Shown here piece by piece: positions 10,095-46,997 of a stretch of DNA of 64,000 bases. Both the position numbers and the translations under genes were made by a program. Source of the stretch: Verrucomicrobiia bacterium. Its GTDB lineage: Bacteria; Verrucomicrobiota; Verrucomicrobiia; Limisphaerales; UBA1319. Under the pieces are notes generated by a model. The model was not told the origin of the DNA, did no database searches, and worked only from the letters and a program-made list of their open reading frames with translations. Location: assembly GCA_963664225.1 (NCBI GenBank), contig OY760937.1, positions 832,001 through 896,000 of the forward strand. The letters are read 5' to 3'. Position 1 is the first letter of the stretch. The number at the start of each line of letters is the position of its first letter.

Positions 10095-11606
10095 ATGAAC
10101 CCACTCGTCCGCTGGATTGCCAGGTTATCGTGTGTGGGTCTGTGCTGTTTCGCCAGCCAGGCTCAAGCGCAAACAATCGATCTTGGTATGTTTGAAGGGC
10201 AAAAGGACATTGGAGACAACCGCAAACCGGGTTTTGCCGAGTATCATTCTGACAGCCAAAGTTACCTGGTGGGAGGTGGCGGCGAGAACATGTGGTTCAC
10301 CAATGACGCGTTCCATTTCGTGTGGAAGAAGATGGATGGGGATTTTGCGTTTGAGTCCAAGGTCAGTTGGGTGGGAGAAGGCGGGAATGCGCATCGCAAG
10401 GGATGTCTGATGATCCGGCAGACGTTGGATTCGGATTCTCCCTATATCGATGCCGCGCTGCATGGCGATGGATTGACTTCACTGCAATACCGCGAGGTTC
10501 GAGGTGGGATGACGCGTGAAATCCAGTCGAATGTGACCAAGCCTGCCAAGCTTCGCATCGTGCGACAGGGGGACGCGTTTACCTTGTGGCTCGCGGGCGA
10601 GGATGGGGCCATGGTTTCATCCGGTTGCGCGCATCGTCTGACCTTCAGCGGGCCCGTGTATGTGGGATTGGCCGTGTGCGCGCATGACAACAGCACACTT
10701 GAAAAGGCGCGCTTTTCGGAAATCTCCATTCAACCCAGGCTTAAAGCCGCTGCGGAAAAGCAGGTGCTTCAATCCACTCTGGAAACGATGGCCATTGCTT
10801 CGAAGGACCGCAAAACAGTTTATCATTCACTCGATCCCTTTGAAGCGCCCAACTGGTCGCGGGACGGGCGTTATCTTCTTTATAACGGCCAGGGCAAAAT
10901 GTGGCGGATGCCGCTGGGTGGTCGCCAACCGGAGCCGGTGGATACGGGGTTTGCGATTCACTGCAACAACGATCATGGAATTTCATTCGATGGCAAGACG
11001 CTGGCCATCAGCGACCAAACCAAGGGCGGCAAATCGTTGATTTATACGCTGCCGGTGGAGGGTGGAATCCCACGCCAAATCACGGCCACCGGTCCTTCGT
11101 ATTGGCATGGATGGTCGCCGGATGGCAAATCTCTTGTTTATTGCGGGGAACGCGGTGGGGAGTTCGATGTTTACAAGATTTCGACGGAGGGCGGCTCCGA
11201 GACGCGCCTGACGACGGCGAGTGGTTTGGACGACGGTCCTGAATATACCGCGGACGGGAAATGGATTTATTTCAATTCGGACCGGACGGGGAGCATGCAA
11301 ATCTGGCGCATGGCCCCGGACGGAAGTGGGCAGGAACAAGTGACCAGGGATTCCTTTAATAATTGGTTTGCGCATCCATCCCCGGATGGCCGTTGGATTG
11401 TATTTCTCTCTTATGAAGCGGATATAAAAGGGCATCCCGCCAATAAACCTGTCATGCTGCGGCTCATGCCGCTGGGTGGCGGACCGATCGATACTTTGGC
11501 GACCTTATTTGGCGGGCAAGGCACCATCAATGTGCCCTCCTGGTCTCCGGACAGCCGCAATATTGCCTTTGTCAGTTATGAATTCGTCACGGTAAATGGA
11601 AAATAG
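10095..11606 (+). CDS. TolB-like PD40 beta-propeller protein with N-terminal lectin-like domain
   Basis: Signal peptide; repeated WSPDG/SPDG motifs; exact start uncertain (10083 or 10095). Confidence 0.85.
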
Positions 11607-11945
11607 GAGGGCGGAGGGCGGAGGAAATGGATAATTGACAATCGAAAATGGACAATGAAGCCAACTTCGAATTAGGCAATCCGTGGGAGAAGAGAATTAT
11701 ACATGGATAATCAGGATGGGCAGGATTTTTAACCACGGATATGACGGATGGCACGCAAGAAGGCGAGCGCTGACTGAGCGGCACCTCTCCACGCCGCGCG
11801 GTGACTTCCTGCCGCTCCAAGGGGCGACTGGATGGCTGGAATAAGCGCATAAATCGCAAAATGGAGTTTCTGCAGCGCCGCAACACGCTAATTTCATGCG
11901 GTTTACACATTTTGGAGAGCCTCAAGAACCACGCAGATGAGGGTA

Positions 11946-11973
11946 TTGACATTATTCCTGTGAGGAATATCTT
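11946..11973 (+). promoter_or_regulatory. Sigma70 promoter with palindromic operator for the TA pair
   Basis: TTGACA (11946-51), 16 nt, TATCTT (11968-73); palindrome TATTCCT-gtg-AGGAATA at 11953-11969. Confidence 0.7.
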
Positions 11974-12339
11974 ATGGAGCCGATGTGGCACTTTGAGCCG
12001 ACAACTCAGTGGCGGAAAGATGTCCGCTTCTATGAAAAGAAGCACCCGAACGAGCTGGCGGCTGTCCTGCGAAATTTGGAACGATACGAAAAACAATTGA
12101 ATATTACCGCGAATTCCCGGTCAATTGCGGCCGGTTATCTGCATGCTGAACCACTGGGCATTCTTGCAATTGACCAGAAGGGAGGCGGTGGCAACCTTCA
12201 AGAGACACGGCTTTACACGTATGCGGATGATGTTAAAAAAGTCGTTTATCTTATTACAATAGGGAATAAAGACAGCCAGGCAGGTGACATTGCGGTCAGT
12301 AAAGAATTTGTCGAAACCTTACGCCAAAAAGCGGAATAG
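11974..12339 (+). CDS. RelE/HigB-like type II toxin (start may be ATG 11983)
   Basis: 121 aa; RLY...VYLITIGNKDSQAGDI resembles the G.K..Q..DI motif of HigB/addiction-killer toxins; lies upstream of an XRE HTH gene. Confidence 0.7.
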   Translation: MEPMWHFEPTTQWRKDVRFYEKKHPNELAAVLRNLERYEKQLNITANSRSIAAGYLHAEPLGILAIDQKGGGGNLQETRLYTYADDVKKVVYLITIGNKDSQAGDIAVSKEFVETLRQKAE

Positions 12340-12348
12340 GAATTTACC

Positions 12349-12948
12349 ATGAATACAGAGCTTGAAAAGAAAGGCGCTGCCCGGCCCACGGGCAAACGCT
12401 ATGCCTCCGTTCAGGATCTTCTCCAGGGAGAGAAAATCACACCGGACGTGCACTCGAAGATCAACGAATTGAGGAAAGAGACCCGCCTGGCGGAAATCCT
12501 GGCCGAATTGCGTGTGAAGGCTGGATTTACCCAGGAGCAGGTGGCCCAACGATTTGGCGTCACCCAGAGCGCCATCTCGAAATTGGAAAGCGGGCGGGAT
12601 GAAGACCTGACTCTGGGGGAAATCCGCAAATACGCGGAACTTACAGGCCAGCGGATCGGACTGTTGTTGGGAAAACCACTGACCCATGTGGAAGCAGTGA
12701 AGGTCCACGCATTGGAAATTAAGAGCCGCTTAACCGCCCTGGCCAAACTTGCGCACAAAGACGAGGAGATTGAGCAAGCCATCCAGGGTTTCTTCGGCGA
12801 GGCATTTTTCAATATTCTCGATATTTTGTCGAAATGCCATCAGCAGATGCCCCACAGTTCCGGTTTTCAACTGAAAGTGGAACTCATCGGGACACCGTCA
12901 TCCAAGCCCGCCGCCACACTGGCTGAGCCTTCAGACAGAGGGGAGTGA
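12349..12948 (+). CDS. XRE-family HTH antitoxin (HigA-like) with extended C-terminus
   Basis: LRVKAGFTQEQVAQRFGVTQSAISKLESG HTH_3 motif. Confidence 0.85.
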   Translation: MNTELEKKGAARPTGKRYASVQDLLQGEKITPDVHSKINELRKETRLAEILAELRVKAGFTQEQVAQRFGVTQSAISKLESGRDEDLTLGEIRKYAELTGQRIGLLLGKPLTHVEAVKVHALEIKSRLTALAKLAHKDEEIEQAIQGFFGEAFFNILDILSKCHQQMPHSSGFQLKVELIGTPSSKPAATLAEPSDRGE

Positions 12949-12981
12949 AAATCAGGCGGCTGAAAAAAAAGAACTGCCTGG

Positions 12982-13137
12982 CCGGCATTGAAGCGCGATC
13001 CGAATCGGCCCGAGGACGTGCTGAAGGTGGAAGTGGATGAAGACGGCAACGGCGGCGACGATATGGCCGATGCGCTGCGATATCTGATCGCGAGCAAGGG
13101 AAGGACGGTGGCGGTCAGGTAATTGGTGGAGGTGTGA
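12982..13137 (+). pseudogene. C-terminal fragment of a phage terminase large subunit
   Basis: Translates PALKRDPNRPEDVLKVEVDEDGNGGDDMADALRYLIASKGRTVAVR*LVEV*; DDxxDALRY is the terminase RNase-H-like nuclease tail. No start, internal stop. Confidence 0.65.
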
Positions 13138-13231
13138 GCAACGATCACAGATTAGCGATCCCGCACCAGTGAAGCCCGATATTCAACTGAGACGCGCCCC
13201 GCCCGCCTCCGCTGAAGTGATCTCGTTAGGC
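13136..13231 (-). other. attC site (integron cassette)
   Basis: Minus strand runs GCCTAAC (contains the cassette stop codon) ... GTTGCTC, 96 bp, imperfect inverted repeat. Confidence 0.7.
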
Positions 13232-13534
13232 TGTCTGGTCCACTTCATAGACGAACGCCTTCCCCCGTGAGGACGGTTCCCAGCCAGCAGCCAGTGCCGC
13301 GCGAATCGAATCGGTAAGCCGTCGCTCCGATACCGATGGACGCGGACGCTTTAGTGACGAAACGCTAGTGGTCAATTCCGGCCGGAACTCCAATAGGAGT
13401 TTGCGCGCCGGAAATTCAACGGGCTGAACAGCAAGTGCGAGCCCCTTCCAGCCCTCGCCGCTACACCAAGTCGGGCGGCGGTGACTACACCACTCGAACC
13501 TAACACCGTCAACAGTGACGTTTGATGCTTTCAC
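13226..13534 (-). CDS. Hypothetical cassette protein
   Basis: ORF between two attC sites; GTG start just after GTTGGCC; TAA stop inside GCCTAAC. Confidence 0.65.
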   Translation of the reverse strand: MKASNVTVDGVRFEWCSHRRPTWCSGEGWKGLALAVQPVEFPARKLLLEFRPELTTSVSSLKRPRPSVSERRLTDSIRAALAAGWEPSSRGKAFVYEVDQTA

Positions 13535-13542
13535 TCGATCTT

Positions 13543-13642
13543 GGCCAACAATTGAACTCACACAAGCCGGACCAAACGATGCTGCCCGCGAAGCGGAACT
13601 GCGACGGCCATCCCGCGTTGTGCTTGCGGCGATTTATTAGTC
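13543..13642 (-). other. attC site (slightly degenerate R'')
   Basis: Minus strand GACTAAT...CACAACGCGGGATGGCCGTCGCAGTTCCGCTTCGCGGGCAGCATCGTTTGGTCCGGCTTGTGTGAGTTCAATT-GTTGGCC. Confidence 0.7.
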
Positions 13643-13657
13643 CACCGCGACTGTAAA

Positions 13658-14101
13658 TCAAGTGTCATACTCTCCGCTGTCCCAAGGTTCATGAAACGCC
13701 ATATAATTCCCAGGCAGCAACTTAACCCACCAATCGTCATCATCCTCTTCTGGCGGGCGTGCCACCAAACCGAATGTCGTGCCATACCGCTCAACCTCAA
13801 ACGGCTGAACCTCGATGCGATCATGCTCGACCGGACCAAGTTCCGCGAGCCGCTGCTCGAACATTTTGCGTGCTCGCTGCTCATCAAGCTCGGCTCGTGT
13901 GCCCATATCATCGATGCGAGCTTCGAGAAATACTCCGCGCTTGTCGAAAATATACACTGCAATAAACTCCCGTCCGGCACTTCCATCAATAGCTGGGACG
14001 AAGGGCGACGTCACGAAAAACTGGCGACCATCCGGGAGACGACCAATGTGACTTGCGTGATAGTCATCATGGTCAATTGCAATGAGTGTTGGCTTGCTCA
14101 T
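13658..14101 (-). CDS. Hypothetical acidic cassette protein (147 aa)
   Basis: MSKPTLIAIDHDDYHA...PWDSGEYDT; preceded by GTTAGCC (14119-14125) and followed by an attC. Confidence 0.75.
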   Translation of the reverse strand: MSKPTLIAIDHDDYHASHIGRLPDGRQFFVTSPFVPAIDGSAGREFIAVYIFDKRGVFLEARIDDMGTRAELDEQRARKMFEQRLAELGPVEHDRIEVQPFEVERYGTTFGLVARPPEEDDDDWWVKLLPGNYMAFHEPWDSGEYDT

Positions 14102-14184
14102 GGCCTCGTGCATTGGTGGGCTAACTTTGATAATGCGACCAGCAGTCCGTATCTTGGACCGGTAAGAAAATATTCTTGATTCGT

Positions 14185-14510
14185 CGCATGTACGGGATTT
14201 AAACCCTTTTCCACTGCCGGTCAACATCAGAGGTTCGGCCTACGCCGCTGGCTGGGCGGTTTGGGCGCGTGAGAAAAGGCGGAGGGCGCAGGGCGCAGGG
14301 CGGAGAGCGGAGGGCAGAGGTCAGGCCACTGATCCAACTCCTACAGAGTTGGTGGCGCGTGGGTATGTGTAACCCGGGGTAGCTCGTTCCTCGCAACCCC
14401 GGTCTGAATGATTTAATCCCTTCGGGATAATGAGATGGAAATCCCGTGCGGCAGTGGTTGAATGGAGATTAAGCGGCCAGCACGTCTGCCAGACCGGAAC
14501 AGGTCGCGCC
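14185..14510 (-). repeat. Duplicated module copy 1 (half-attC + three-hairpin element + GGAGGGC repeats + promoter + ATG)
   Basis: Aligns by eye with 15758-16145 across two blocks. Confidence 0.85.
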
Positions 14511-14543
14511 ATCCGCCATCCGCTGGAGTGATCCTCGTTAGGC
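14474..14543 (-). other. Truncated attC (left half only)
   Basis: TGA of the upstream gene is immediately followed by GCCTAACGAGGATCACTCCAGCGG..., closely like attC 13136-13231, then breaks into the repeat module. Confidence 0.65.
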
Positions 14544-15149
14544 TCACCGGTTTTCATGTTCAATAGAATTTAAAAACTTTTCATGCTCTGCGACGATCAT
14601 TCGCCAGTTCGGACGCTCATTAGTGCGAATGAAATTAAGGGTTCCTCTTAATCGCTTACGGAACTCGTCCTGCGAGACTCGCTCGCTGCACTCACCTAGC
14701 TGTCCCGTGTGCGGGCGGAAGTCCGATCCGCTGCCAAAATCAACGGGAATGATAATCCAAGCCTTCTCTTTGAATCTGGTGGGTGGAGGGCCATGCCAAT
14801 TCCAGCGTGTTGGACGGTTAAAATACAAGAGGATCAAATCTGGAGCGTCGTCTTCGCGGAGGCCGGGAACGTAGTTGTAATCATTGGTCCACGCCATATA
14901 ACCGCTCAAATTGTCACCAATTATTGCGAGTGAATCTTGGCTCGAGCCTTTAACATTGGGAAAAGGCTCCCGGGCATTTGTGATGTCTCCGCCAGACGGA
15001 TGCATCACGGCCGAAAAGCCCAGCATAATCGTCTTGTGACAGGTCGGCCTTCCATCCCAATCCAAAATGAGGCAGAAGTACCCGAATATCAGTCCGACAA
15101 GGGCGGCAGATATTCCCGCAACCCAGAAAACTACTATTTTCGTCCGCAT
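14544..15149 (-). CDS. Hypothetical membrane-anchored cassette protein
   Basis: N-terminal TM helix; starts 14 nt after GTTGAAC; stop abuts GCCTAAC. Confidence 0.75.
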   Translation of the reverse strand: MRTKIVVFWVAGISAALVGLIFGYFCLILDWDGRPTCHKTIMLGFSAVMHPSGGDITNAREPFPNVKGSSQDSLAIIGDNLSGYMAWTNDYNYVPGLREDDAPDLILLYFNRPTRWNWHGPPPTRFKEKAWIIIPVDFGSGSDFRPHTGQLGECSERVSQDEFRKRLRGTLNFIRTNERPNWRMIVAEHEKFLNSIEHENR

Positions 15150-15163
15150 GGCACGTAGGATTT

Positions 15164-15264
15164 GTTCAACTCAAAGGTCAGTGATGAGAGCCAGCCGCCT
15201 GAGACGTTCGATTTGTCTCTGAGGGAATCGGCTGGCTCCCGGTCGCTGGGCCGGCCTGTTGATC
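15164..15264 (-). other. attC site
   Basis: Minus strand GATCAAC (alternative GTCTAAC at 15271-77) ... GAGCCAGCCG..CGGCTGGCTC arms ... GTTGAAC (perfect GTTRRRY). Confidence 0.8.
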
Positions 15265-15762
15265 GGTCTTGTTAGACTTGGGATAAATCCGCCAAAGCCC
15301 GACCGACTGATCACCCGGATTCCAGCCATACACGCGCCCCCACATCTCACTACCATCGATCAGGCCGACGTATTTTGGGTCTGCCTCGTAGCCCGCGCCC
15401 TCCTGAGTCCAGGAGACAACAATTCCTGTAACCACAAGCGTTTGTGAGCCACCGCTGCGGTTGAAGGTGTGGGGAGCGGGAACAGTGATCTGCCCATTCT
15501 CGCAGTGAAGGATAATCTCACGGGGCGCAAGATGAGACCCTGGAAACCACACATCCATCAAATACGCGCCGGAGGTGATGACGTTACTCCGCGTTTGAAA
15601 ACTTGGGAGCACGCTCCTATCCAAGTCAGCAAATTTATCGTAGCGCCTCATCTCATCCTCCATCAATTCTACCTCTGCGCTCGTGCTGCCCCACCAACGG
15701 CCGATGAAAAATGACACCACCACCGCTCCGACTCCGATAGAGGCTAGGATAAGCTTACGCAT
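15178..15762 (-). CDS. Hypothetical exported cassette protein reading through its attC
   Basis: Signal/TM N-terminus; the C-terminal tail QQAGPATGSQPIPSETNRTSQAAGSHH is encoded by the attC. Confidence 0.75.
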   Translation of the reverse strand: MRKLILASIGVGAVVVSFFIGRWWGSTSAEVELMEDEMRRYDKFADLDRSVLPSFQTRSNVITSGAYLMDVWFPGSHLAPREIILHCENGQITVPAPHTFNRSGGSQTLVVTGIVVSWTQEGAGYEADPKYVGLIDGSEMWGRVYGWNPGDQSVGLWRIYPKSNKTDQQAGPATGSQPIPSETNRTSQAAGSHH

Positions 15763-16145
15763 GTACGGGGTTTAGACCCTTTTCCAATGTTGGTCAATAT
15801 CGGAGGTTCTGTCCACGCCGTTGGCTGGCCGGTTTCGGCGCGAGAGAAAAGGCGGAGGGCGGAGGGCAAACCAGAAGGCGGAGGGCCACAGATTAACACA
15901 GACCGACACAGATCAGGATGGAAAATATGCGGACGGAGGTCAGGCCACGGATCCAACTCCTACAGAGTTGGTGGTGTGGAGGGGGATGCGCAACCCGGGG
16001 TAGCTCGTTCCTCGCAACCCCGGTCTGAATGATTTAATCCCTTCGGGATAATGAGATGGAAATCCGGTGCCGCAGTGGTTGAATGGAGATTAAGCGGCCA
16101 GCACGTCTTGCCAGCACGTCTGCCAGACCGGAACAGGACGCGCCA
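15758..16145 (-). repeat. Duplicated module copy 2
   Basis: Same blocks as 14185-14510; includes a short AGACGTGCTGGC tandem duplication. Confidence 0.85.
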
Positions 16146-16169
16146 CTCGGGGTACACGGATTAAGCAAG

Positions 16170-17465
16170 TCAGCCGGTATGGTTGGGCGCTAATGTCCGA
16201 ATCAATGCCCTGGTCGCCTGGCGGGTTTTCCAGGTGGCGATGTCCAGGCCGCGATTGCACGCGACGAGCACGGCAAAGTCAATTTCGGGCGCGATGGACA
16301 CAACGCTGTGCGATAATCCGTTGCTTCCGCCGTGCCAGAGACGGCGGCCGGTGTCTCCGGGCCGGATTCCTTTTGCCCAACCGGCTGGGCTGATAAACCA
16401 TCCGGCATTGTAAGTCACGGCGGGTGTGTCATCACCCGTTGCCAGGGAGATTGCCCCGCGCAAGACCCGTCCCCCCTTGAAATAAGTTGTGGCGGGTGAG
16501 GCTGCGTGCATTTCCGCAAATGCATCCGGCTTGAGCAGCGCGGCCTGGCCATGGGGATTGGCCGGATCACCGCACAAATGGAGCCCGATGAATTTGGCCC
16601 AATCTGTAATGGTCATGTGTGCCGTGCCGGCCGGGCCGTAGTACATTGGGAATTGCGCGGCGGGGCTGCCTGGGTCAATCGGTTTGCCAACGAACGAGGA
16701 GTGGCCCCAGGGTTGATCGGTTTTACCAGCGGCGCCCGGCTGCCCGAACCCGCCCGTGCTGATGCCCAGTGGCTGGAAGAGTCGTTCGCGCATCAGGTCT
16801 TCCCACGCACGCCCGGTGAGGTGTTCCAGCACGGCCCCCGCGAGAACGTAGCCCTCATTGGAATAGACGAATTTGGTGCCCGGAGGGTTTGTTGGCGCGC
16901 GCGAAAGGGCCTGCCTGGCGATTTCCAGGCGCTGCTGCGGCAAGGTTCCCAGCCGTGATCGCGGGGGCTGCATCAACCCGGGGCCGCTGCGCAAGTTGGC
17001 GAAAGGTGCGCGAAGAAGGTTAAACACCCGGCCCAGGCCGTCCGGGTCAATGCGCAAGCCGGCGCGGTGCGCGAGGACCTGCCGCAAGGTGACTTTCTCC
17101 CACGCCGGGTGCATGGGCTTCACCGTGTCGGCAAAAAGTTCACCCAACGTGGTGGTCCAATTCACCCTGCCATGCTCGACGAGCATCGCGACGAGCGTCG
17201 CGGTCATGGCTTTGCCGCAGGAATTAAGGAGAAATCGATCGTCGAGTGTGATGCGATCCGCGGCCCCTCTCTTGCGGACTCCTGCGACGCCTTGAGCGAC
17301 GATGCAGTTGCCCTGCAGAACGACAGCGGCCATGCCGAAAGATTCGGCCCACCGACCAAGGATCGATTGCAGGATGGCATCAACATTGGCCGGCACGTTG
17401 TCCTCCATCTTCCCGTGGGACAAACTCGCGGGTCTCAATGGATCGGATTTTGGCGCTTCGCTCAT
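16170..17465 (-). CDS. Serine hydrolase, beta-lactamase class C-like family
   Basis: SxxK (SCGK), L.H.AG, YSN and WHGGS motifs; GCCCAAC core at the 3' end (16182-16188). Confidence 0.9.
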   Translation of the reverse strand: MSEAPKSDPLRPASLSHGKMEDNVPANVDAILQSILGRWAESFGMAAVVLQGNCIVAQGVAGVRKRGAADRITLDDRFLLNSCGKAMTATLVAMLVEHGRVNWTTTLGELFADTVKPMHPAWEKVTLRQVLAHRAGLRIDPDGLGRVFNLLRAPFANLRSGPGLMQPPRSRLGTLPQQRLEIARQALSRAPTNPPGTKFVYSNEGYVLAGAVLEHLTGRAWEDLMRERLFQPLGISTGGFGQPGAAGKTDQPWGHSSFVGKPIDPGSPAAQFPMYYGPAGTAHMTITDWAKFIGLHLCGDPANPHGQAALLKPDAFAEMHAASPATTYFKGGRVLRGAISLATGDDTPAVTYNAGWFISPAGWAKGIRPGDTGRRLWHGGSNGLSHSVVSIAPEIDFAVLVACNRGLDIATWKTRQATRALIRTLAPNHTG

Positions 17466-18100
17466 GTTATTAACTTCCAGCAGGAGAATGGGTCAATGCA
17501 CCAGTCTGCCAATGACCCGAACGTCCGGTTTCATGTTGCCGGTTATCAGGCCGTGGTGCAATAAGACAGTGACCTGGCCCACGAAACCGGGTGTGAGACA
17601 AAATTCTCCGGCAGGCGAAAAAAGCGACAAAAAGGGCATGTGAGTATATACGAAACAAATATTGCAAGGGTTTCGGGAATGGCCGCGCGCCGATTGAGGG
17701 TCCGGCAAAAGTCAGATCTGAATGGACGACCGCCCTCCCGGCCTTCCCCCAGGGGGGTATTGGGAGATATCGGTGTATTTGAACGGTTTGAGAGCTGCCA
17801 TCGCGTGGGGTTTAAGTGCGAGGGGAATGAAACTGATCATAAATTCGGATGGGATTTAGCCGCATTTGGAAAGGAAAAGGAGAGCCTCACCCCGTCCCTC
17901 CATCTGGCGACGGAGAGGGAGGAGTATTGGGCGGTTCCGGACGATTGGGTGGTTTGGGAGGTTGCAGCCGCGTGGGTTTTGCGCAAAGGTAATAACCACA
18001 CAGTAAAAGTGACAGAGGGCGGGAAAGGGCGGAGAATTTAACCGCAGTTCCTCGACGGGTGCCAATCAAAGTTCGGGGCGAGGCGGTGAAACGGGTACGT

Positions 18101-18134
18101 AAAAAATCCCCTCCGGTTTAGCGAAGGGGATTTT
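18101..18134 (-). terminator. Rho-independent terminator
   Basis: aaaatcccct...aggggatttt stem with a T-run on the minus strand, downstream of the DUF1559 gene. Confidence 0.7.
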
Positions 18135-18164
18135 GAAAGTTGAATTAAATCAAGCAGGGCGATC

Positions 18165-19043
18165 TTATTTCGAGGATGTCCGCTGAGACAGCCAGTACCA
18201 GTCGCGCCGCTCCTGTTGTGAATTAAGAGTTAATTGCCCGTTATTACCCGTCCTCATTTTGGTGGAGCTTACGAGCCACTTATGGATTTCAGAGTGACCA
18301 TCGGCGAAGGACAAGCCGACCGCCATATTATGGTAGGTGGCGGGCCAATCGATCCATTTCGCCTGATCGCAACTAACGCCAAAGCCGGCGTCATTGATGC
18401 TGCCCTCGTCTTCCTCAATAAAAACCCATGTCATCGAGGGTTTGAGAAAATCCGTGTTTTTTCCAAAAGTCCTCCAAGGACTATTGCGCTTGTGAGTGTG
18501 ATTGCCATCCAACCAGGGTCCATTGACAGATAGGGTGGGGATGCCACTGTGGTTACCGCCTGCATCAAATCCAGGATCCACGGTGCCCACCGCCTGGCTC
18601 ATGGCAAAGCTGCGAACGGTCGGGCGACCGCCAACCATTCTTTTATCGGCGGGGCATTTGTAAATACCGATGTTGTTACCCGTGTATTTCGCCAACACGT
18701 TGTATCTGGCCTCGCGGATATACATGGGGTTTGTGGCTTGCAGGTTGTCGGCCATGTTTCCCGAGCACCAATTGTAACCAGGCACTGTATTCGCGTCATC
18801 AGGATTAGGCGGCAACAGCTCCATATTGTCCGCAGCATACAACTGCAACGCGAGGATCATTTGCTTGCCGTTGTTCATGCAAGTAATGCCTTGGGCCTTG
18901 GTTTTGGCCTTGGCCAGAGAGGGCAGGAGCATGCCGGCCAGAATGGCGATGATTGCAATAACCACTAACAGCTCGATGAGTGTAAAACCGGAAATTCGGG
19001 CTTCGCGCCTTCCACTGCGGCTTATTGGAGTTGAGATACGCAT
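18165..19043 (-). CDS. Prepilin-type N-methylation domain protein (DUF1559/H-X9-DG type)
   Basis: [35 protein letters not shown]9-DGH C-terminus. Confidence 0.92.
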
Positions 19044-19330
19044 AATAAATTGCATTAAGAATGTCTTCAGTTTCGGCCAGCATCCTAATGGGGCTGTCTG
19101 AACGTGTCAAAATTAAAGCAAAGGAGGGAAACAGACAACTGTGCGTTTTGCGGCACAGTGAAAAGAACGATCCGGGCCGGGATTCGAGAAGGGTGCATGG
19201 AATCAGACGTCCAGACTGCATGTTGCTGTATGTGTATTATCATAAGGAAGATGCGAAACAATTGGATGCGATTCTTTGTGTTGCCGACCATGCAGACCCG
19301 CGCTACAATCCATGAAGCAACTCTGCATTT

Positions 19331-20464
19331 ATGACAATAAAACAATCGCGTCGGCTGATTTATGGGACGGTTTTGTTCATCGTGTTTTCCATTGGCGGGG
19401 CATTTGAGCTTTGCGCGAGCGATGTTGTTCAGAGCACAAATACTAACGATAACGCCTCCGCCAGCCCGGCATGGACTGAGATTCTAAACGCGATGCAGCG
19501 GCTTGAGACTCCGCGCGAATGGGCCACGAACCGGCCCGCGCCTGAAGCTCTGGCGAAATTTCGGCAGAAACAGGCGGACGCAGCCGTGGAAGTGGCCGCC
19601 AGGGCGCAGGAGTTTTACCGTCGGTTTCCCAACGATCCACGGGCATCGGAAGCCAGACTCAAAGAGCGGGAGATCCTTGGACAGGCTGAGCGTTTTGGCA
19701 ACGATAAAGCCCGCGCGCGACTGGCGGAACTTGATGCGGCCAGACTCAAGGACGAGTCCACCAGCGAGGATGAGCGGTTTGAAATCGGGCTTTCGCGCCT
19801 GCAGCGGGAAACCCGGCAGCAGATGACGAATGCCGCCGGGATGGATGCCGCGCTGGAGGTGTATGCAAATGGAGCACGGCAATTGTTGAAGGATTTTCCA
19901 AAACGTGAGGAACCTTGGGAGATGCTGCTGGCTGTGGCGATGAAGGCTCCGGAAGCGAAGGCGCGGATTCTGGCCCGGGAAATTGTCGAGGGGACGGCAT
20001 CAGAGGCGGTCAAGACGCAGGCGCGCGCGGTTTTGAATAAACTGGAACTGTTGGGCAAACCGTTTCAACTGAAGTTCACGGCCCTGGATGGCCGGGAGGT
20101 GGATTTGTCGAAAATGAGGGGAAGGGTGGTGTTGGTCGATTTTTGGGCCACATGGTCCGGACCGTATGTAGCCCAATGGCCGCAGTTCAAGACGGCATGT
20201 CAGATCTGGCAAAACATGGGTTGTGAGGTCGTGGGGATCAGTTTCGACACGGACAAGGAGACATTGAAGACGTTCCTGGCCGGGGAAAAAGTGGAATGGC
20301 CGCAGTATTTCGACGGGCAGGGCTGGAAGAATAAGATCGGTCTGGAGAACGACATTAAGAGCCTGCCCGCCTTGTGGCTGATCGATAAGAAGGGGATTTT
20401 GCGCGATCAGAATGCGAGGGACAATTTTGAGCAGAAGGTGAAGAAGTATCTGGCGGAGAAATGA
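19331..20464 (+). CDS. TlpA/ResA-like thioredoxin-fold protein lacking CxxC
   Basis: GRVVLVDFWATWSGPY, GISFD, LIDKKG motifs; helical N-domain; signal peptide. Confidence 0.85.
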   Translation: MTIKQSRRLIYGTVLFIVFSIGGAFELCASDVVQSTNTNDNASASPAWTEILNAMQRLETPREWATNRPAPEALAKFRQKQADAAVEVAARAQEFYRRFPNDPRASEARLKEREILGQAERFGNDKARARLAELDAARLKDESTSEDERFEIGLSRLQRETRQQMTNAAGMDAALEVYANGARQLLKDFPKREEPWEMLLAVAMKAPEAKARILAREIVEGTASEAVKTQARAVLNKLELLGKPFQLKFTALDGREVDLSKMRGRVVLVDFWATWSGPYVAQWPQFKTACQIWQNMGCEVVGISFDTDKETLKTFLAGEKVEWPQYFDGQGWKNKIGLENDIKSLPALWLIDKKGILRDQNARDNFEQKVKKYLAEK

Positions 20465-20534
20465 GAAGAGGGCGGAGGAAAATTGATAATGGATAATTGA
20501 CAATTGGGTCCCGTCCTAAAATAGGTTGTCCCTA

Positions 20535-20950: not shown

Positions 20951-21787
20951 GTGCCGGTCAAAGGGGTGTGTCGCCGACTGGGGATGAGCCGCCAGAACTT
21001 CTATGCGGGGCGCACGCGGCGGATGCGCAAGAAAGTGGAGGGCGACCTTGTGGCGGATTTAGTGCGTCAGGAGCGCAGGAAGCATCCGCGGATCGGGGCG
21101 CGAAAGCTCCACAGGACGATCAAGCCAGCCCTGGAAAAGGCCGGAGTAAAAATGGGGCGGGACCGCCTGTTTGAAGAGTTGCGAGAGCGGGATTTGCTGG
21201 TGCCGCCGCTGCCCCGGCAATGGCCCCAGACAACCCATTACAATCCCAGTTTGCCGGTGTTTCACAATGAGATCAAGGAACGGGAGGTGAAGCGGGCCAA
21301 TGAGGTTTGGGTGGCGGATATGACCTATGTGCGGACCGACGAGGGTTTTTTATATGTGTCGCTGATCACGGATAAGTATTCGCGCAAGATCGTGGGTTTC
21401 CATGCCGATGAGACGCTGGAAACCAGGGGGACGCTTGAGGCGTTGGAGATGGCGCTGGCGGCACTGCCCAGGGGATTCAATCCGATCCATCATTCGGATC
21501 GTGGCTGTCAGTATGCCAGTCATGAGTATGTGGATCGGTTGAAGTTGGGCGGCCTGTCCATCAGCATGACGGAGGAGGATCATTGCGCGGAGAATGCGAT
21601 GGCCGAACGGGTCAACGGCATCCTAAAGCAGGAGTATGGCATAGGGTATGGATTTAAGACCAAGGCGCTGGCGCGCAAAGTAATCAGTCAGGCTGTCAAT
21701 CTCTACAATACGCGCCGATTGCATACGGCATTGAATTACCAGGTGCCCGAGGCCGTTCACATCCGGGGAACCGTCGAGTATAACTAA
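20951..21787 (+). CDS. IS3 transposase OrfB (rve DDE)
   Basis: WVADMTY, HHSDRGCQY, ENAMAERVNGILKQE; probably fused to OrfA by frameshift. Confidence 0.92.
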   Translation: MPVKGVCRRLGMSRQNFYAGRTRRMRKKVEGDLVADLVRQERRKHPRIGARKLHRTIKPALEKAGVKMGRDRLFEELRERDLLVPPLPRQWPQTTHYNPSLPVFHNEIKEREVKRANEVWVADMTYVRTDEGFLYVSLITDKYSRKIVGFHADETLETRGTLEALEMALAALPRGFNPIHHSDRGCQYASHEYVDRLKLGGLSISMTEEDHCAENAMAERVNGILKQEYGIGYGFKTKALARKVISQAVNLYNTRRLHTALNYQVPEAVHIRGTVEYN

Positions 21788-45510: not shown

Positions 45511-45584
45511 GCGGGTGTGGTCCAATGGTAGAATGCGGGCTTCCCAAGCCTGAGACGAGGGTTCGATTCCCTTCACCCGCTCCA
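45511..45584 (+). tRNA. tRNA-Gly (CCC)
   Basis: GCGGGTG...loop TTCCCAA...GGTTCGATTCC...CACCCGCTCCA, 74 nt. Confidence 0.95.
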
Positions 45585-45725: not shown

Positions 45726-46997
45726 ATGAAAAAAAATGCGATCACTGAACCAGAGGAGTTTCCGGTGTATGTCACCGGCGATCCCACAAACATCACCATT
45801 TACAAAGAAACCCACGACGGGGAATGCCGTTACATGGTTTCTTATTATGACGCCGCGTGCAGCCGTCATCGGCGGCGGTGCTCCACTTATGCGACAGCAG
45901 ATGCCTGTGCCGCAAAACTTAAAAAGGAGATCAAAGCAGGCGGCTGGGATTTGCTGACCCTCCGGGGCGCTGAAAAGCATTCGTATGAGCGTGCCTGGGA
46001 ACTTTTGCGTCCGTGCTCCACACCGCTGGATTTGGCCATCCATGAATACATGGAGGCGAGCAAAGTCCTCAACGGTTTCGGCCTGATGGAAGCCGCGAGG
46101 GCTTTTATCCAGCGCCAGGCGGATAAAGTGACGCCCAAACTTGTGGTCGAGATCGTGCCGGAACTCATTGACGATCTAAAACGGAAGGGCCGTTCAAAAT
46201 TTTATCTGCGCGATTTAAGGACGCGGCTGGGACGGTTTCGAGAGAAGTACTCCTGTCCGCTGTCCTCAATATCCACAGCGGAGATCGACAATTACATCCA
46301 CAATCTTGGGGGCAAGGAACGATACAGGAACAATGTGCTGCAAGCGATTGGCGCCCTGTTCACTTTCGGAAGGAAGCGAGGATACGCTGCTCGTGACCAC
46401 CGGGGTGTCAGCGAAGTCACGCGATACGAGATCAGAGGCAAAGAAATCGAAGTCTTAACTCCGGCGGAATTGGAAAAAATGCTCCTGAAGGCCAATCCGC
46501 AGGTGCAACTTGCGTTGGCGCTGACCTGTTTTGCAGGAGTCCGTGGTTCTGAATTGGGACGACTGGATTGGAAGGACGTCAATTTCGAGGCTGGTTTTAT
46601 CCGCGTCAAGGCTGCCAGCTCCAAAACCGGAATGCGCCGCGTCCCTCCGATCCCAGACAACCTGCGCGCTTGGTTGATGCTCCACCGCAAGGAGTCAGGG
46701 CCGATTGTCCCTTATAAAAATATTTACAATCAATATCCCAAAGTCGCCAGCAAGGCTGGAATCCAATGGAAACGCAATGGTCACCGGCACGGATTTGCAT
46801 CCTATAGATCGGCCTTAATCAAGAACCTTGAGCAGGTTGCGATCGAAGCCGGCCACAGCAAGCAAATGCTCCTGTCGAATTATTTCCAGGTGGTCTCCGA
46901 GCAGGATGCCAAGGCTTGGTTTTCGATATTTCCACCAGGACATCCAAAGCCCATGCCGCCACAACTGGCCACGCTGGAGCCGTCACCGACACATTAA
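45726..46997 (+). CDS. Tyrosine recombinase/integrase
   Basis: G.R..EL..L.W.D, K, RH.FASY, AGHS, catalytic Y; directly 3' of a tRNA. Confidence 0.9.
   Translation: MKKNAITEPEEFPVYVTGDPTNITIYKETHDGECRYMVSYYDAACSRHRRRCSTYATADACAAKLKKEIKAGGWDLLTLRGAEKHSYERAWELLRPCSTPLDLAIHEYMEASKVLNGFGLMEAARAFIQRQADKVTPKLVVEIVPELIDDLKRKGRSKFYLRDLRTRLGRFREKYSCPLSSISTAEIDNYIHNLGGKERYRNNVLQAIGALFTFGRKRGYAARDHRGVSEVTRYEIRGKEIEVLTPAELEKMLLKANPQVQLALALTCFAGVRGSELGRLDWKDVNFEAGFIRVKAASSKTGMRRVPPIPDNLRAWLMLHRKESGPIVPYKNIYNQYPKVASKAGIQWKRNGHRHGFASYRSALIKNLEQVAIEAGHSKQMLLSNYFQVVSEQDAKAWFSIFPPGHPKPMPPQLATLEPSPTH

Follow-up and report, generated by a model that had tools for sequence, protein, structure and literature searches.

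The stretch analysed here (the window, 64,000 nt) spans positions 832001-896000 of the genome of a Verrucomicrobiia bacterium (G000; 5.78 Mb in a single contig). It contains an array of small integron-type gene cassettes, in which a short repeated element that we call E occurs in two copies, one of them truncated. Integrons usually consist of one platform, comprising the integrase gene intI, the attachment site attI and the cassette promoter Pc, followed by one array of cassettes; clusters of the cassette attachment site attC lacking an integron integrase (CALINs) are treated as debris or stray insertions. On balance we favor, with modest confidence, the interpretation that E is an orphan, multi-copy platform that combines an attI-like site with a Pc-like promoter and heads cassette arrays. 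Such a platform would have two parts, an attI-like insertion site ending in G↓TT (the arrow marks the crossover) and a promoter-like part upstream of it. In the joining of cassettes E would have been the double-stranded partner on the upstream side, with an IntI, either lost since or acting in trans, recombining at G↓TT, and some 14 orphan copies would head arrays or sub-arrays of one to four cassettes at at least six loci.

E is an element of about 115 nt (range 115-125 nt), represented by 11 full copies, the truncated second copy in the window and three to four diverged relatives. A search with an nhmmer model of E returned the 11 full copies (E-value ≤ 2.8e-31), window copy 2 and three weak partial matches. 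Pairwise identity among the full copies lies between 0.68 and 0.95, with a median of 0.79. Both window copies are on the minus strand. Copy 1 (E'+E, 14125-14277, nhmmer E-value = 1.1e-35) is full length, with GGCCGAAC at 14233-14240, TTGACC at 14219-14224, TTTAAAT at 14197-14203 and ATG at 14187-14189, and its conserved core ...GGTCGCATTATCAAAG ends at the G at position 14125. The end of the repeat and the start of unique cassette DNA meet in the junction G↓TTAGCC (14119-14125). Copy 2 (E'+E, 15758-15850, E-value = 1.6e-10) comprises the 5' half only, corresponding to model positions 2-52. It has TTGACC at 15792-15797 and TCTAAA at 15771-15776, its homology ends with ATGCG at 15758-15762 where it is fused to a 194-aa open reading frame (ORF), and it lacks the att-like 3' half.

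The 3' boundary of E is sharply defined. The repeat runs 65 nt beyond the ATG to AAAG↓TT, and conservation stops after ...ATCAAAG in all 11 full copies. Homology that ends at the crossover G↓TT before the first cassette is the property by which an attI site is recognised, and here TT comes next in seven of the 11. TT is also present at the junctions of both E copies found in metagenome contigs of a related strain (see below), and at those of two of three E2 copies and of E3; with the metagenome copies left aside, 10 of 15 junctions across E, E2 and E3 have it. E2 (1679733, 4881739 and 5336161 in the genome) and E3 (4119667) have other 5' parts, share their last ~45 nt with E and likewise precede genes. 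In 10 of the 11 copies the next ORF, a different one each time and at least 79 aa long, begins no more than 25 nt after E; behind the eleventh there is a 38-codon frame and then a 443-aa gene at +165.

The part of E upstream of the ATG resembles a promoter. All 12 genomic copies have the same TTGACC, with a T(T/C)TAAA(T/C) box 15-16 nt later. An earlier interpretation made from the letters of the window (the sequence-only reading) had pointed to TTGACC, a 16-nt spacer and a −10-like box, and TTGACC-N16-T(T/C)AAA(T/C)-ccccgtacATGCG is found in both window copies, the order after the −10-like box being ccccgtac and then ATGCG. We infer only that TTGACC and the T(T/C)TAAA(T/C) box may serve as an outward-facing promoter of the Pc kind. 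From the A of the conserved ATG to the G of G↓TT the distance is 65 nt. At the Pc of Vibrio cholerae the mRNA start is placed 65 bp upstream of the attI point in the excerpted text of PMC3948777, and we take the shared spacing as a parallel in geometry and not as evidence of homology. In copy 2 the ATG at 15762 is indeed the start of the 194-aa ORF (15178-15762), as had been noted. Copy 2 would be a promoter half fused to that ORF, and its mRNA would be nearly leaderless if the predicted promoter fires.

The DNA behind E has the character of a cassette array, as the sequence-only reading had correctly recognised, with ordinary attC-like sites between small ORFs. We defined such sites as imperfect palindromes of ~57-141 nt following small ORFs and bounded by R'' RYYYAAC and R' GTTRRRY. 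They were called with a home-made detector that in its strict form reports ~70 sites in 5.78 Mb, and that found nine sites in the 4.1 kb beside the bona fide intI of a genome of the same family (G006). A generic palindrome scan was non-specific and was abandoned. The window contains three sites, palindromes of ~75-115 nt between small minus-strand ORFs, against the two or more by which an array is recognised. Clearer examples lie elsewhere in the genome, at 4.1184-4.1198 Mb (TGTGGCCGAAC ... GTTCGGCCACA) and at 0.2226-0.2232 Mb (GGCCAAC ... GTTAGGC and GCCTAAC ... GTTAGGC), with further clear sites at 1.958 Mb and 0.3377 Mb. An end-to-end fold was obtained for eight of 12 ordinary sites (z ≤ −1.4, with 20-34% of bases in the terminal hairpin), and the sites form sequence families common to several loci (z up to 35). 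Seven of 11 cassette proteins have no Pfam family and the rest carry Prok-JAB, DUF4279 or acyl carrier protein (ACP)-like domains, which is typical of such arrays.

No integron integrase was found in the genome, where the best TIGR02249 score is 82.2 bits against a cut-off of 265. The same model scores above cut-off in 22 of the 61 genomes searched (this one and 60 relatives), including four of nine from the same family, and a genome of the same genus has a partial match of 221 bits. The nearest candidates in the genome are of XerC/D type, among them the tyrosine recombinase upstream of E2 at 5.336 Mb, which was considered as a possible IntI and rejected. With attC arrays present and no IntI in the genome, the arrays are of the CALIN type. 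That term and SALIN, for a single attC site lacking an integron integrase, are reportedly described by Cury et al. in 2016.

E behaves differently from these attC-like sites. The attC designation requires a single strand that folds into a long hairpin pairing R'' with R' and L'' with L'. None of the 11 full copies of E folds end to end in this way, the paired fraction being at most 0.17 and z ranging from +0.35 to −2.4, and comparison of E with 12 attC-like sites revealed no sequence similarity (z < 2.5).

The first six bases of an integron cassette (TTxxxx) come from the attC of that same cassette and are therefore complementary to its R''. We scored this complementarity over the four variable bases of the first hexamer behind each platform candidate, against R'' of the cassette's own attC. 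It is complete (4/4) behind E at 338184 (TTATGT versus ACATAAC) and behind E3 at 4119667 (TTCGGC versus GCCGAAC), as it is at the true attI of G006. A score of 3/4 was obtained for E at 221964, E at 1959122 and E2 at 1679733.

The position of E and the variability of what follows it fit the head of an array. At two places E separates DNA that is not a cassette from the first cassette. One is at 0.222 Mb, where repeats come first and then E, gene, attC, gene, attC, gene and hisD; the other is in the metagenome contig L070. This contig and a second one, L069, both from a related strain and with 85-93% identity, place E in new contexts. In L070, B-C hairpins (described below) are followed by E (G↓TTCGCT), by three novel cassettes each with its attC, and then by a 138-aa cassette that in G000 lies behind different cassettes. 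In L069, E and one gene stand directly beside a conserved flank that in G000 is 6 kb away from E; the stretch from an attC R' to the G↓TT of this E copy contains no ORF. The cassette content behind E therefore varies between strains.

A number of observations weigh against a platform. An attI site is expected to adjoin intI, and E does not, since there is no intI beside any copy or elsewhere in the genome. Four of the 11 E junctions are not G↓TT, having AC, GT, CT or GG after the G. The complementarity is weak in L070 (2/4), and it fails at window copy 1, where TTAGCC matches the first downstream R'' (GCACAAC) at 1/4; against the site at 13231 the same hexamer scores 3/4. Copies of E also occur internally, directly behind a cassette, at 1957626 and 1959122, in L069 and at window copy 1, and for these an attC-like or gene-less-cassette role fits too. 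In eight of 12 copies GAAC is found ~113 nt before the GTT, together with a TGAT/ATCA pair, in a weak R/L-box-like arrangement. Compared with attI1 of class 1 integrons only one of 15 copies beats 99% of shuffled sequences, and none of the 15 does so against the attI of G006; an apparent resemblance to known attI sites (GTCGC...CAAAG↓TT and TGATGTT) did not rise above shuffles and was dropped. A consensus scan calls no σ70 promoter in E, because the −10 sequence fails the rule of the scan. Lastly, the attC calls rest on the home-made detector, whose relaxed form does no better than background (11 versus 10 sites).

E was noticed as part of a longer module, and the relationship between the two bears on what E is. 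The sequence-only reading had described two diverged module copies on the minus strand, and these are present at 14185-14511 and 15758-16145, with a mean column identity of 82% (96% in block B). A local duplication giving just two copies is ruled out, as a 361-nt query returned 60 matches in the genome. Coverage along the query falls into five blocks, and the module is a mosaic of genome-wide repeats with ~14 copies of block A, ~43 of B, ~23-33 of C (23 of them spanning B-C), ~7 of D and ~11-13 of E. The contiguous order A-B-C-D-E occurs only in the two window copies. ABC, D and E also occur separately or in other combinations, for example E alone behind other upstream modules, and most copies of B and C lie outside the loci that carry E.

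ABC forms the three-hairpin repeat (14324-14511 in copy 1, fold z = −3.0; 15943-16145 in copy 2, with a 13-nt internal tandem duplication at 16097-16126). The three hairpins predicted earlier are present, the single-stranded DNA fold of 14320-14440 giving −21.5 kcal/mol with z = −3.0. The stems are kept across 23 B-C copies, where non-standard pairs fill 6 of 483 cells and three of 21 pairs have compensatory two-sided changes, which may be just a few subfamily events. As a multi-copy intergenic unit with conserved hairpins, ABC resembles miniature inverted-repeat transposable elements (MITEs) and repetitive extragenic palindromes (REPs). Neither terminal inverted repeats nor target-site duplications were seen when the flank alignments were inspected, which was not a systematic test. 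Eight ABC units with a period of ~296 nt are arranged head to tail at 1734251-1736444; an E copy and a small gene come directly after them, and a near-duplicate block lies at 1754.6-1758.2 kb. The heptamer runs of block D are likewise as described, at 14278-14320 (6.1 copies) and at 15851-15887, where (GCCCTCC)n gives 2.4 copies over 15851-15867. G+C-rich runs of GCCCTCC/GCCCTCA, of up to ~9 units, occur in the window at 11613-11645, 14278-14320, 15851-15887 and 20468-20500 and in the genome at 1959.98-1960.06 Mb, recurring immediately before E as well as elsewhere between genes. ABC and D are generic intergenic repeats, often located upstream of E. Derivation of segment A from attC was considered and discarded, its similarity to attC not being significant (z ≤ 2.6).

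The sequence-only reading had held that each module copy follows half an attC broken at the same point, from CCTGTTCCGG...GCCGC into TTAATCTCC. That boundary is not a break. A is always continuous with B and C, so the supposed break is the interior of one contiguous A-B repeat unit, present in 14 copies. A truncated attC does exist at copy 1, with the real break ~30 nt upstream of the position that had been named. It consists of the left half of a type-1 site (R'' GCCTAAC plus L'', 14505-14544, minus strand) after a 201-aa ORF, and matches the left halves of the attC sites at 13134-13231 (z = 14.6) and at 4.1186 Mb (z = 9.7) before switching to the ABC repeat at a common GGCGCG. At copy 2 just the word GCCCAAC is present, and the flank matches none of the attC sites (maximum z = 2.7). 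We also tried the 3' half of E as the missing right half of the truncated site, and the two are not homologous. We read the junction between the truncated attC and ABC as a rearrangement that fused the upstream array to a separate platform, rather than as a targeted insertion; copy 1 would then be a full platform fused behind a truncated attC.

These data argue against the idea that the module is a small non-autonomous mobile element which inserts into attC and destroys it, fixing cassettes in place and bringing a promoter. The abutment of copy 1 on an attC left half, the GCCCAAC before copy 2, the GGCGCG common to attC and the 5' end of ABC, and the dispersed, multi-copy nature of ABC with its hairpins kept by compensatory changes all lend it some color. 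Yet a demonstrable half-attC is found at only one of 14 A-bearing copies, and an attC right half was not found downstream of the module. Nor do the parts travel as a unit, given the eight-copy ABC array lacking E units within it and the occurrence of E behind three other upstream modules, and the flank alignments gave no sign of the terminal features of such an element. Since the missing half is not E, the flank of copy 2 has no attC and no other A copy adjoins a half-attC, the insertion-element idea fails as an account of the family, and we regard it as improbable. The other proposal made at the outset, a duplicated Pc/attI-like platform, is the one we favor, restricted to the E part and to a dispersed family of ~14 copies in place of a local duplication. 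The main competitor to a platform is that E is a conserved attC family, comparable to the V. cholerae repeats (VCRs), or the 3' recombination site of a gene-less promoter cassette, in which case it would belong to the cassette upstream and boost those downstream. The internal copies point this way, the one in L069 being preceded by a short attC (GCTCAAC...GTTGAAC), as do the GAAC and TGAT/ATCA arrangement and an inverted repeat GACCnnCAGT / ACyGCTsGTC that is matched at 7-10 of its 10 positions. Precedents exist, in that gene-less cassettes with sense-strand promoters are documented for Vibrio superintegrons in the excerpt of PMC11014356, and cassettes ending in attI remnants for mobile integrons in that of PMC12901181. 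However, the 3' arm of the inverted repeat is constant, so that no covariation is seen, AAC is absent from four of 12 copies, the 5' boundary of E is variable, and E is unlike any ordinary attC in sequence and in lacking a terminal hairpin in the minimum-free-energy fold (0/11). Moreover E can follow DNA that is not a cassette, as with ~900 nt of repeats at 0.222 Mb, eight ABC units at 1.736 Mb, a xerC-like gene at 5.336 Mb and the B-C hairpins of L070. We consider it unlikely that E is an attC.

Two further explanations dispense with a recombination site of this kind. E could be one of the intergenic repeats that carry a promoter, like BOX or Correia elements; cassettes would have been inserted by an integrase at its GTT, as at a secondary genomic attachment site (attG), and their expression would have led to their retention. 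Small modular repeats abound in the genome, E does not look like known attI sites, and IntI1 is described in the excerpted text of 10.1101/2022.09.11.507474 as inserting cassettes at genomic GWT sites, with expression near resident promoters. But the ~14 E-type copies all end at the same AAAG, even though TT follows at only 10 of the 15 junctions, and the otherwise different E2 and E3, each heading cassettes, have the last ~45 nt in common. Conservation of the ~45 nt proximal to the crossover suggests a selected site and not a chance GTT, and we give chance landing little credence. Still less probable, to the point that we set hardly any store by it, is that E is a structured leader RNA, a riboswitch or a small peptide regulating the genes downstream. 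It is always immediately 5' of a start codon, and a conserved stem ATGCGAC...GTCGCAT can be predicted, but the stem is broken in three of 11 copies with no compensation, the fold of E has z ~ −1, and the downstream genes are unrelated to each other. Rfam searches at the gathering threshold and at E-value ≤ 10 matched tRNAs and a spurious miRNA hairpin (an attC stem) and nothing in E. As to a peptide, the ATG at 14189 does open the 22-codon frame that had been reported, closed by a TAG within GTTAGCC (14119-14125), but the frame is not coding-like, varying across the E copies at all codon positions and containing an in-frame stop in one of them. A role as peptide or structured RNA was rejected on these grounds. 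E is also absent from the 60 relatives, in which BLAST gave no match and nhmmer found nothing significant near their intI genes, and exact-pattern scans of a genome collection of 185k species with two E patterns gave no matches.

The platform interpretation can be set against known systems. The platform concept (intI, attI and Pc), CALINs and SALINs, and insertion at GWT sites with expression from resident promoters are all set out in the excerpted text of 10.1101/2022.09.11.507474. Like the platforms of the V. cholerae superintegron, as far as the excerpt of PMC3948777 describes it, and of the G006 integron, E is a conserved sequence that does not form a hairpin and that ends at G↓TT. It also has a promoter-like pair ~65 nt upstream of the crossover, and stands before promoterless small-gene cassettes with their own attC, whose first bases complement their own R'' for several E, E2 and E3 cassettes. 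E differs from these platforms in that there is no intI anywhere and there are ~14 dispersed copies in place of one, some of them inside arrays. It has no significant similarity to attI1 or to the attI of G006, and its promoter and integrase binding are predicted only. G006 itself offers a precedent, a further copy of its 126-nt attI platform that has no intI and is conserved to ATTG↓TT, with a different cassette and attC behind it. This orphan belongs to the same bacterial family and shares with E the absence of intI, conservation to G↓TT and a different cassette plus attC behind it. But G006 has two copies, one with intI, against ~14 in G000, none with intI, and the sequences are unrelated.

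The scattered short attC-bearing arrays of this intI-less genome resemble CALINs and SALINs. Where CALINs are defined by attC only, in the excerpted text of 10.1101/2022.09.11.507474, here a recurrent, conserved head element is present as well. Gene-less promoter cassettes that re-start transcription in Vibrionaceae superintegrons, as described in the excerpt of PMC11014356, are similar in being ORF-less segments within arrays, with the re-promotering role that the sequence-only reading had proposed. However, those cassettes end in an ordinary VCR-type attC and their promoters are shown experimentally in the same excerpt, whereas E is not attC-like and its promoter is only predicted. Delta-attI cassettes, in which attI remnants mark the limits of cassettes and remain substrates of the integrase of mobile integrons (excerpt of PMC12901181), share with E the presence of attI-type sites as boundaries inside arrays. 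The delta-attI cassettes of that excerpt come from clinical class 1 and class 2 integrons and carry remnants of attI1 or attI2, whereas E is a chromosomal repeat family whose integrase is unknown or absent.

Modular intergenic repeats are familiar from other bacteria, such as the pneumococcal BOX elements (boxA-boxB(n)-boxC), the bacterial interspersed mosaic elements (BIMEs) and REPs of enterobacteria and the Correia elements of Neisseria, some of which carry promoter hexamers. The ABC, D and E modules are like them in their variable number and order, and in hairpins kept by compensatory changes, but those families are not known to be linked with integron cassette junctions. Literature searches, which covered titles and the beginnings of abstracts, returned no multi-copy, integrase-less attI/Pc-like repeat family heading dispersed arrays, and one may already have been described.

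As the genome has no integrase, the E sites are probably frozen unless one arrives in trans. A possible extension, which we put forward tentatively, is a 'distributed integron', in which a platform of the attI plus Pc type has multiplied to ~14 chromosomal copies, possibly as gene-less cassettes ending in attI. A single integrase, since lost from this strain or provided in trans by DNA entering the cell, might then load cassettes at many loci rather than at one and so bring about their expression. What can be said of E as it stands is that the integrase-less arrays of one genome have a common, conserved head element with a promoter-like part, and that a related strain has other cassettes behind it. 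This provides a concrete case in which to test how distal or orphan cassettes come to be transcribed. If E does work as a site of insertion and expression, it would be possible for CALINs to be organised units that are expressed and for attI-type sites to spread in the manner of repeats, and arrays in integron-rich, poorly studied phyla might be found through their head elements as well as through attC.

The cassette array of the window occupies the minus strand between ~13.1 and ~16.2 kb. Its three attC-like sites lie at 15164-15277 (GATCAAC or GTCTAAC ... GTTGAAC), which folds end to end with z = −3.8 and is homologous to the sites at 0.2226 and 0.3372 Mb (z = 24.7 and 21.7), at 13551-13623 (type 1, GCACAAC ... 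GTTCAAT; z = 35 against the site at 0.3377 Mb), and at 13134-13231 (GCCTAAC ... GTGATCGTT). The last of these is also of type 1; its right core has been replaced by flanking DNA, which marks the end of the array. The ORFs, all on the minus strand, encode 194 aa (15178-15762, the 3' end overlapping the next attC-like site), 201 aa (14544-15149) and 147 aa (13658-14101, starting 22 nt after the junction of copy 1), none with a Pfam family. A 111-aa ORF with a GTG start (13226-13561) is uncertain as a real gene.

Upstream of copy 2, on the minus strand, is a 431-aa gene of the beta-lactamase fold (PF00144, 16170-17465), with no E-type core upstream of it. The R''-like word GCCCAAC, at 16182-16188, lies inside this gene. 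Its sole clear paralog (33% identity), of 427 aa, follows the E2 copy at 5.336 Mb, where E2 stands between the xerC-like gene and the paralog (5334915-5336200, minus strand) with the junction AAAG↓GCCAC. The 427-aa gene is followed by GTGGCCTAAC, and it looks as if four crossover bases had been lost at the E2 junction. At the other end of the window array, on the opposite strand, are an Xre-type helix-turn-helix gene (PF01381) and a small upstream ORF without a family (region 11974-12948, plus strand, and ~12990-13130). These two could be a toxin-antitoxin-like module. An adjacent block of ~150 nt recurs beside the arrays at 0.337 and 0.2209 Mb.

Comparison of the DNA of the window array with three relatives gave short repeat matches only, with no synteny. 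Contigs from four public sequencing runs covering 11000-19500 are interrupted by the repeats and showed no alternative allele. Contigs from two of the runs (X1 and X3) join 11656 to 17875 through 27 other letters, with sides of 30 nt that both lie in repeats; the likely source of this joint is a different locus flanked by the same repeats. The cassette region is bracketed by repeats of at least 300 nt and 99% identity, 19.5 kb apart, at 1467-1766 and 20978-21277 (and also 1979-2018 and 21490-21529), which may represent a duplicated gene or a mobile element. Small repeats are dense between 2500 and 4900, where a 48-nt unit ending in TATAAACATGTCGCCCCGCTGGGGCT occurs 10 times and 300-nt units five times. 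Further along, near a tRNA gene at 45511-45581, a 442-aa tyrosine-recombinase frame (46260-46691, plus strand) may belong to an integrative element unrelated to E.

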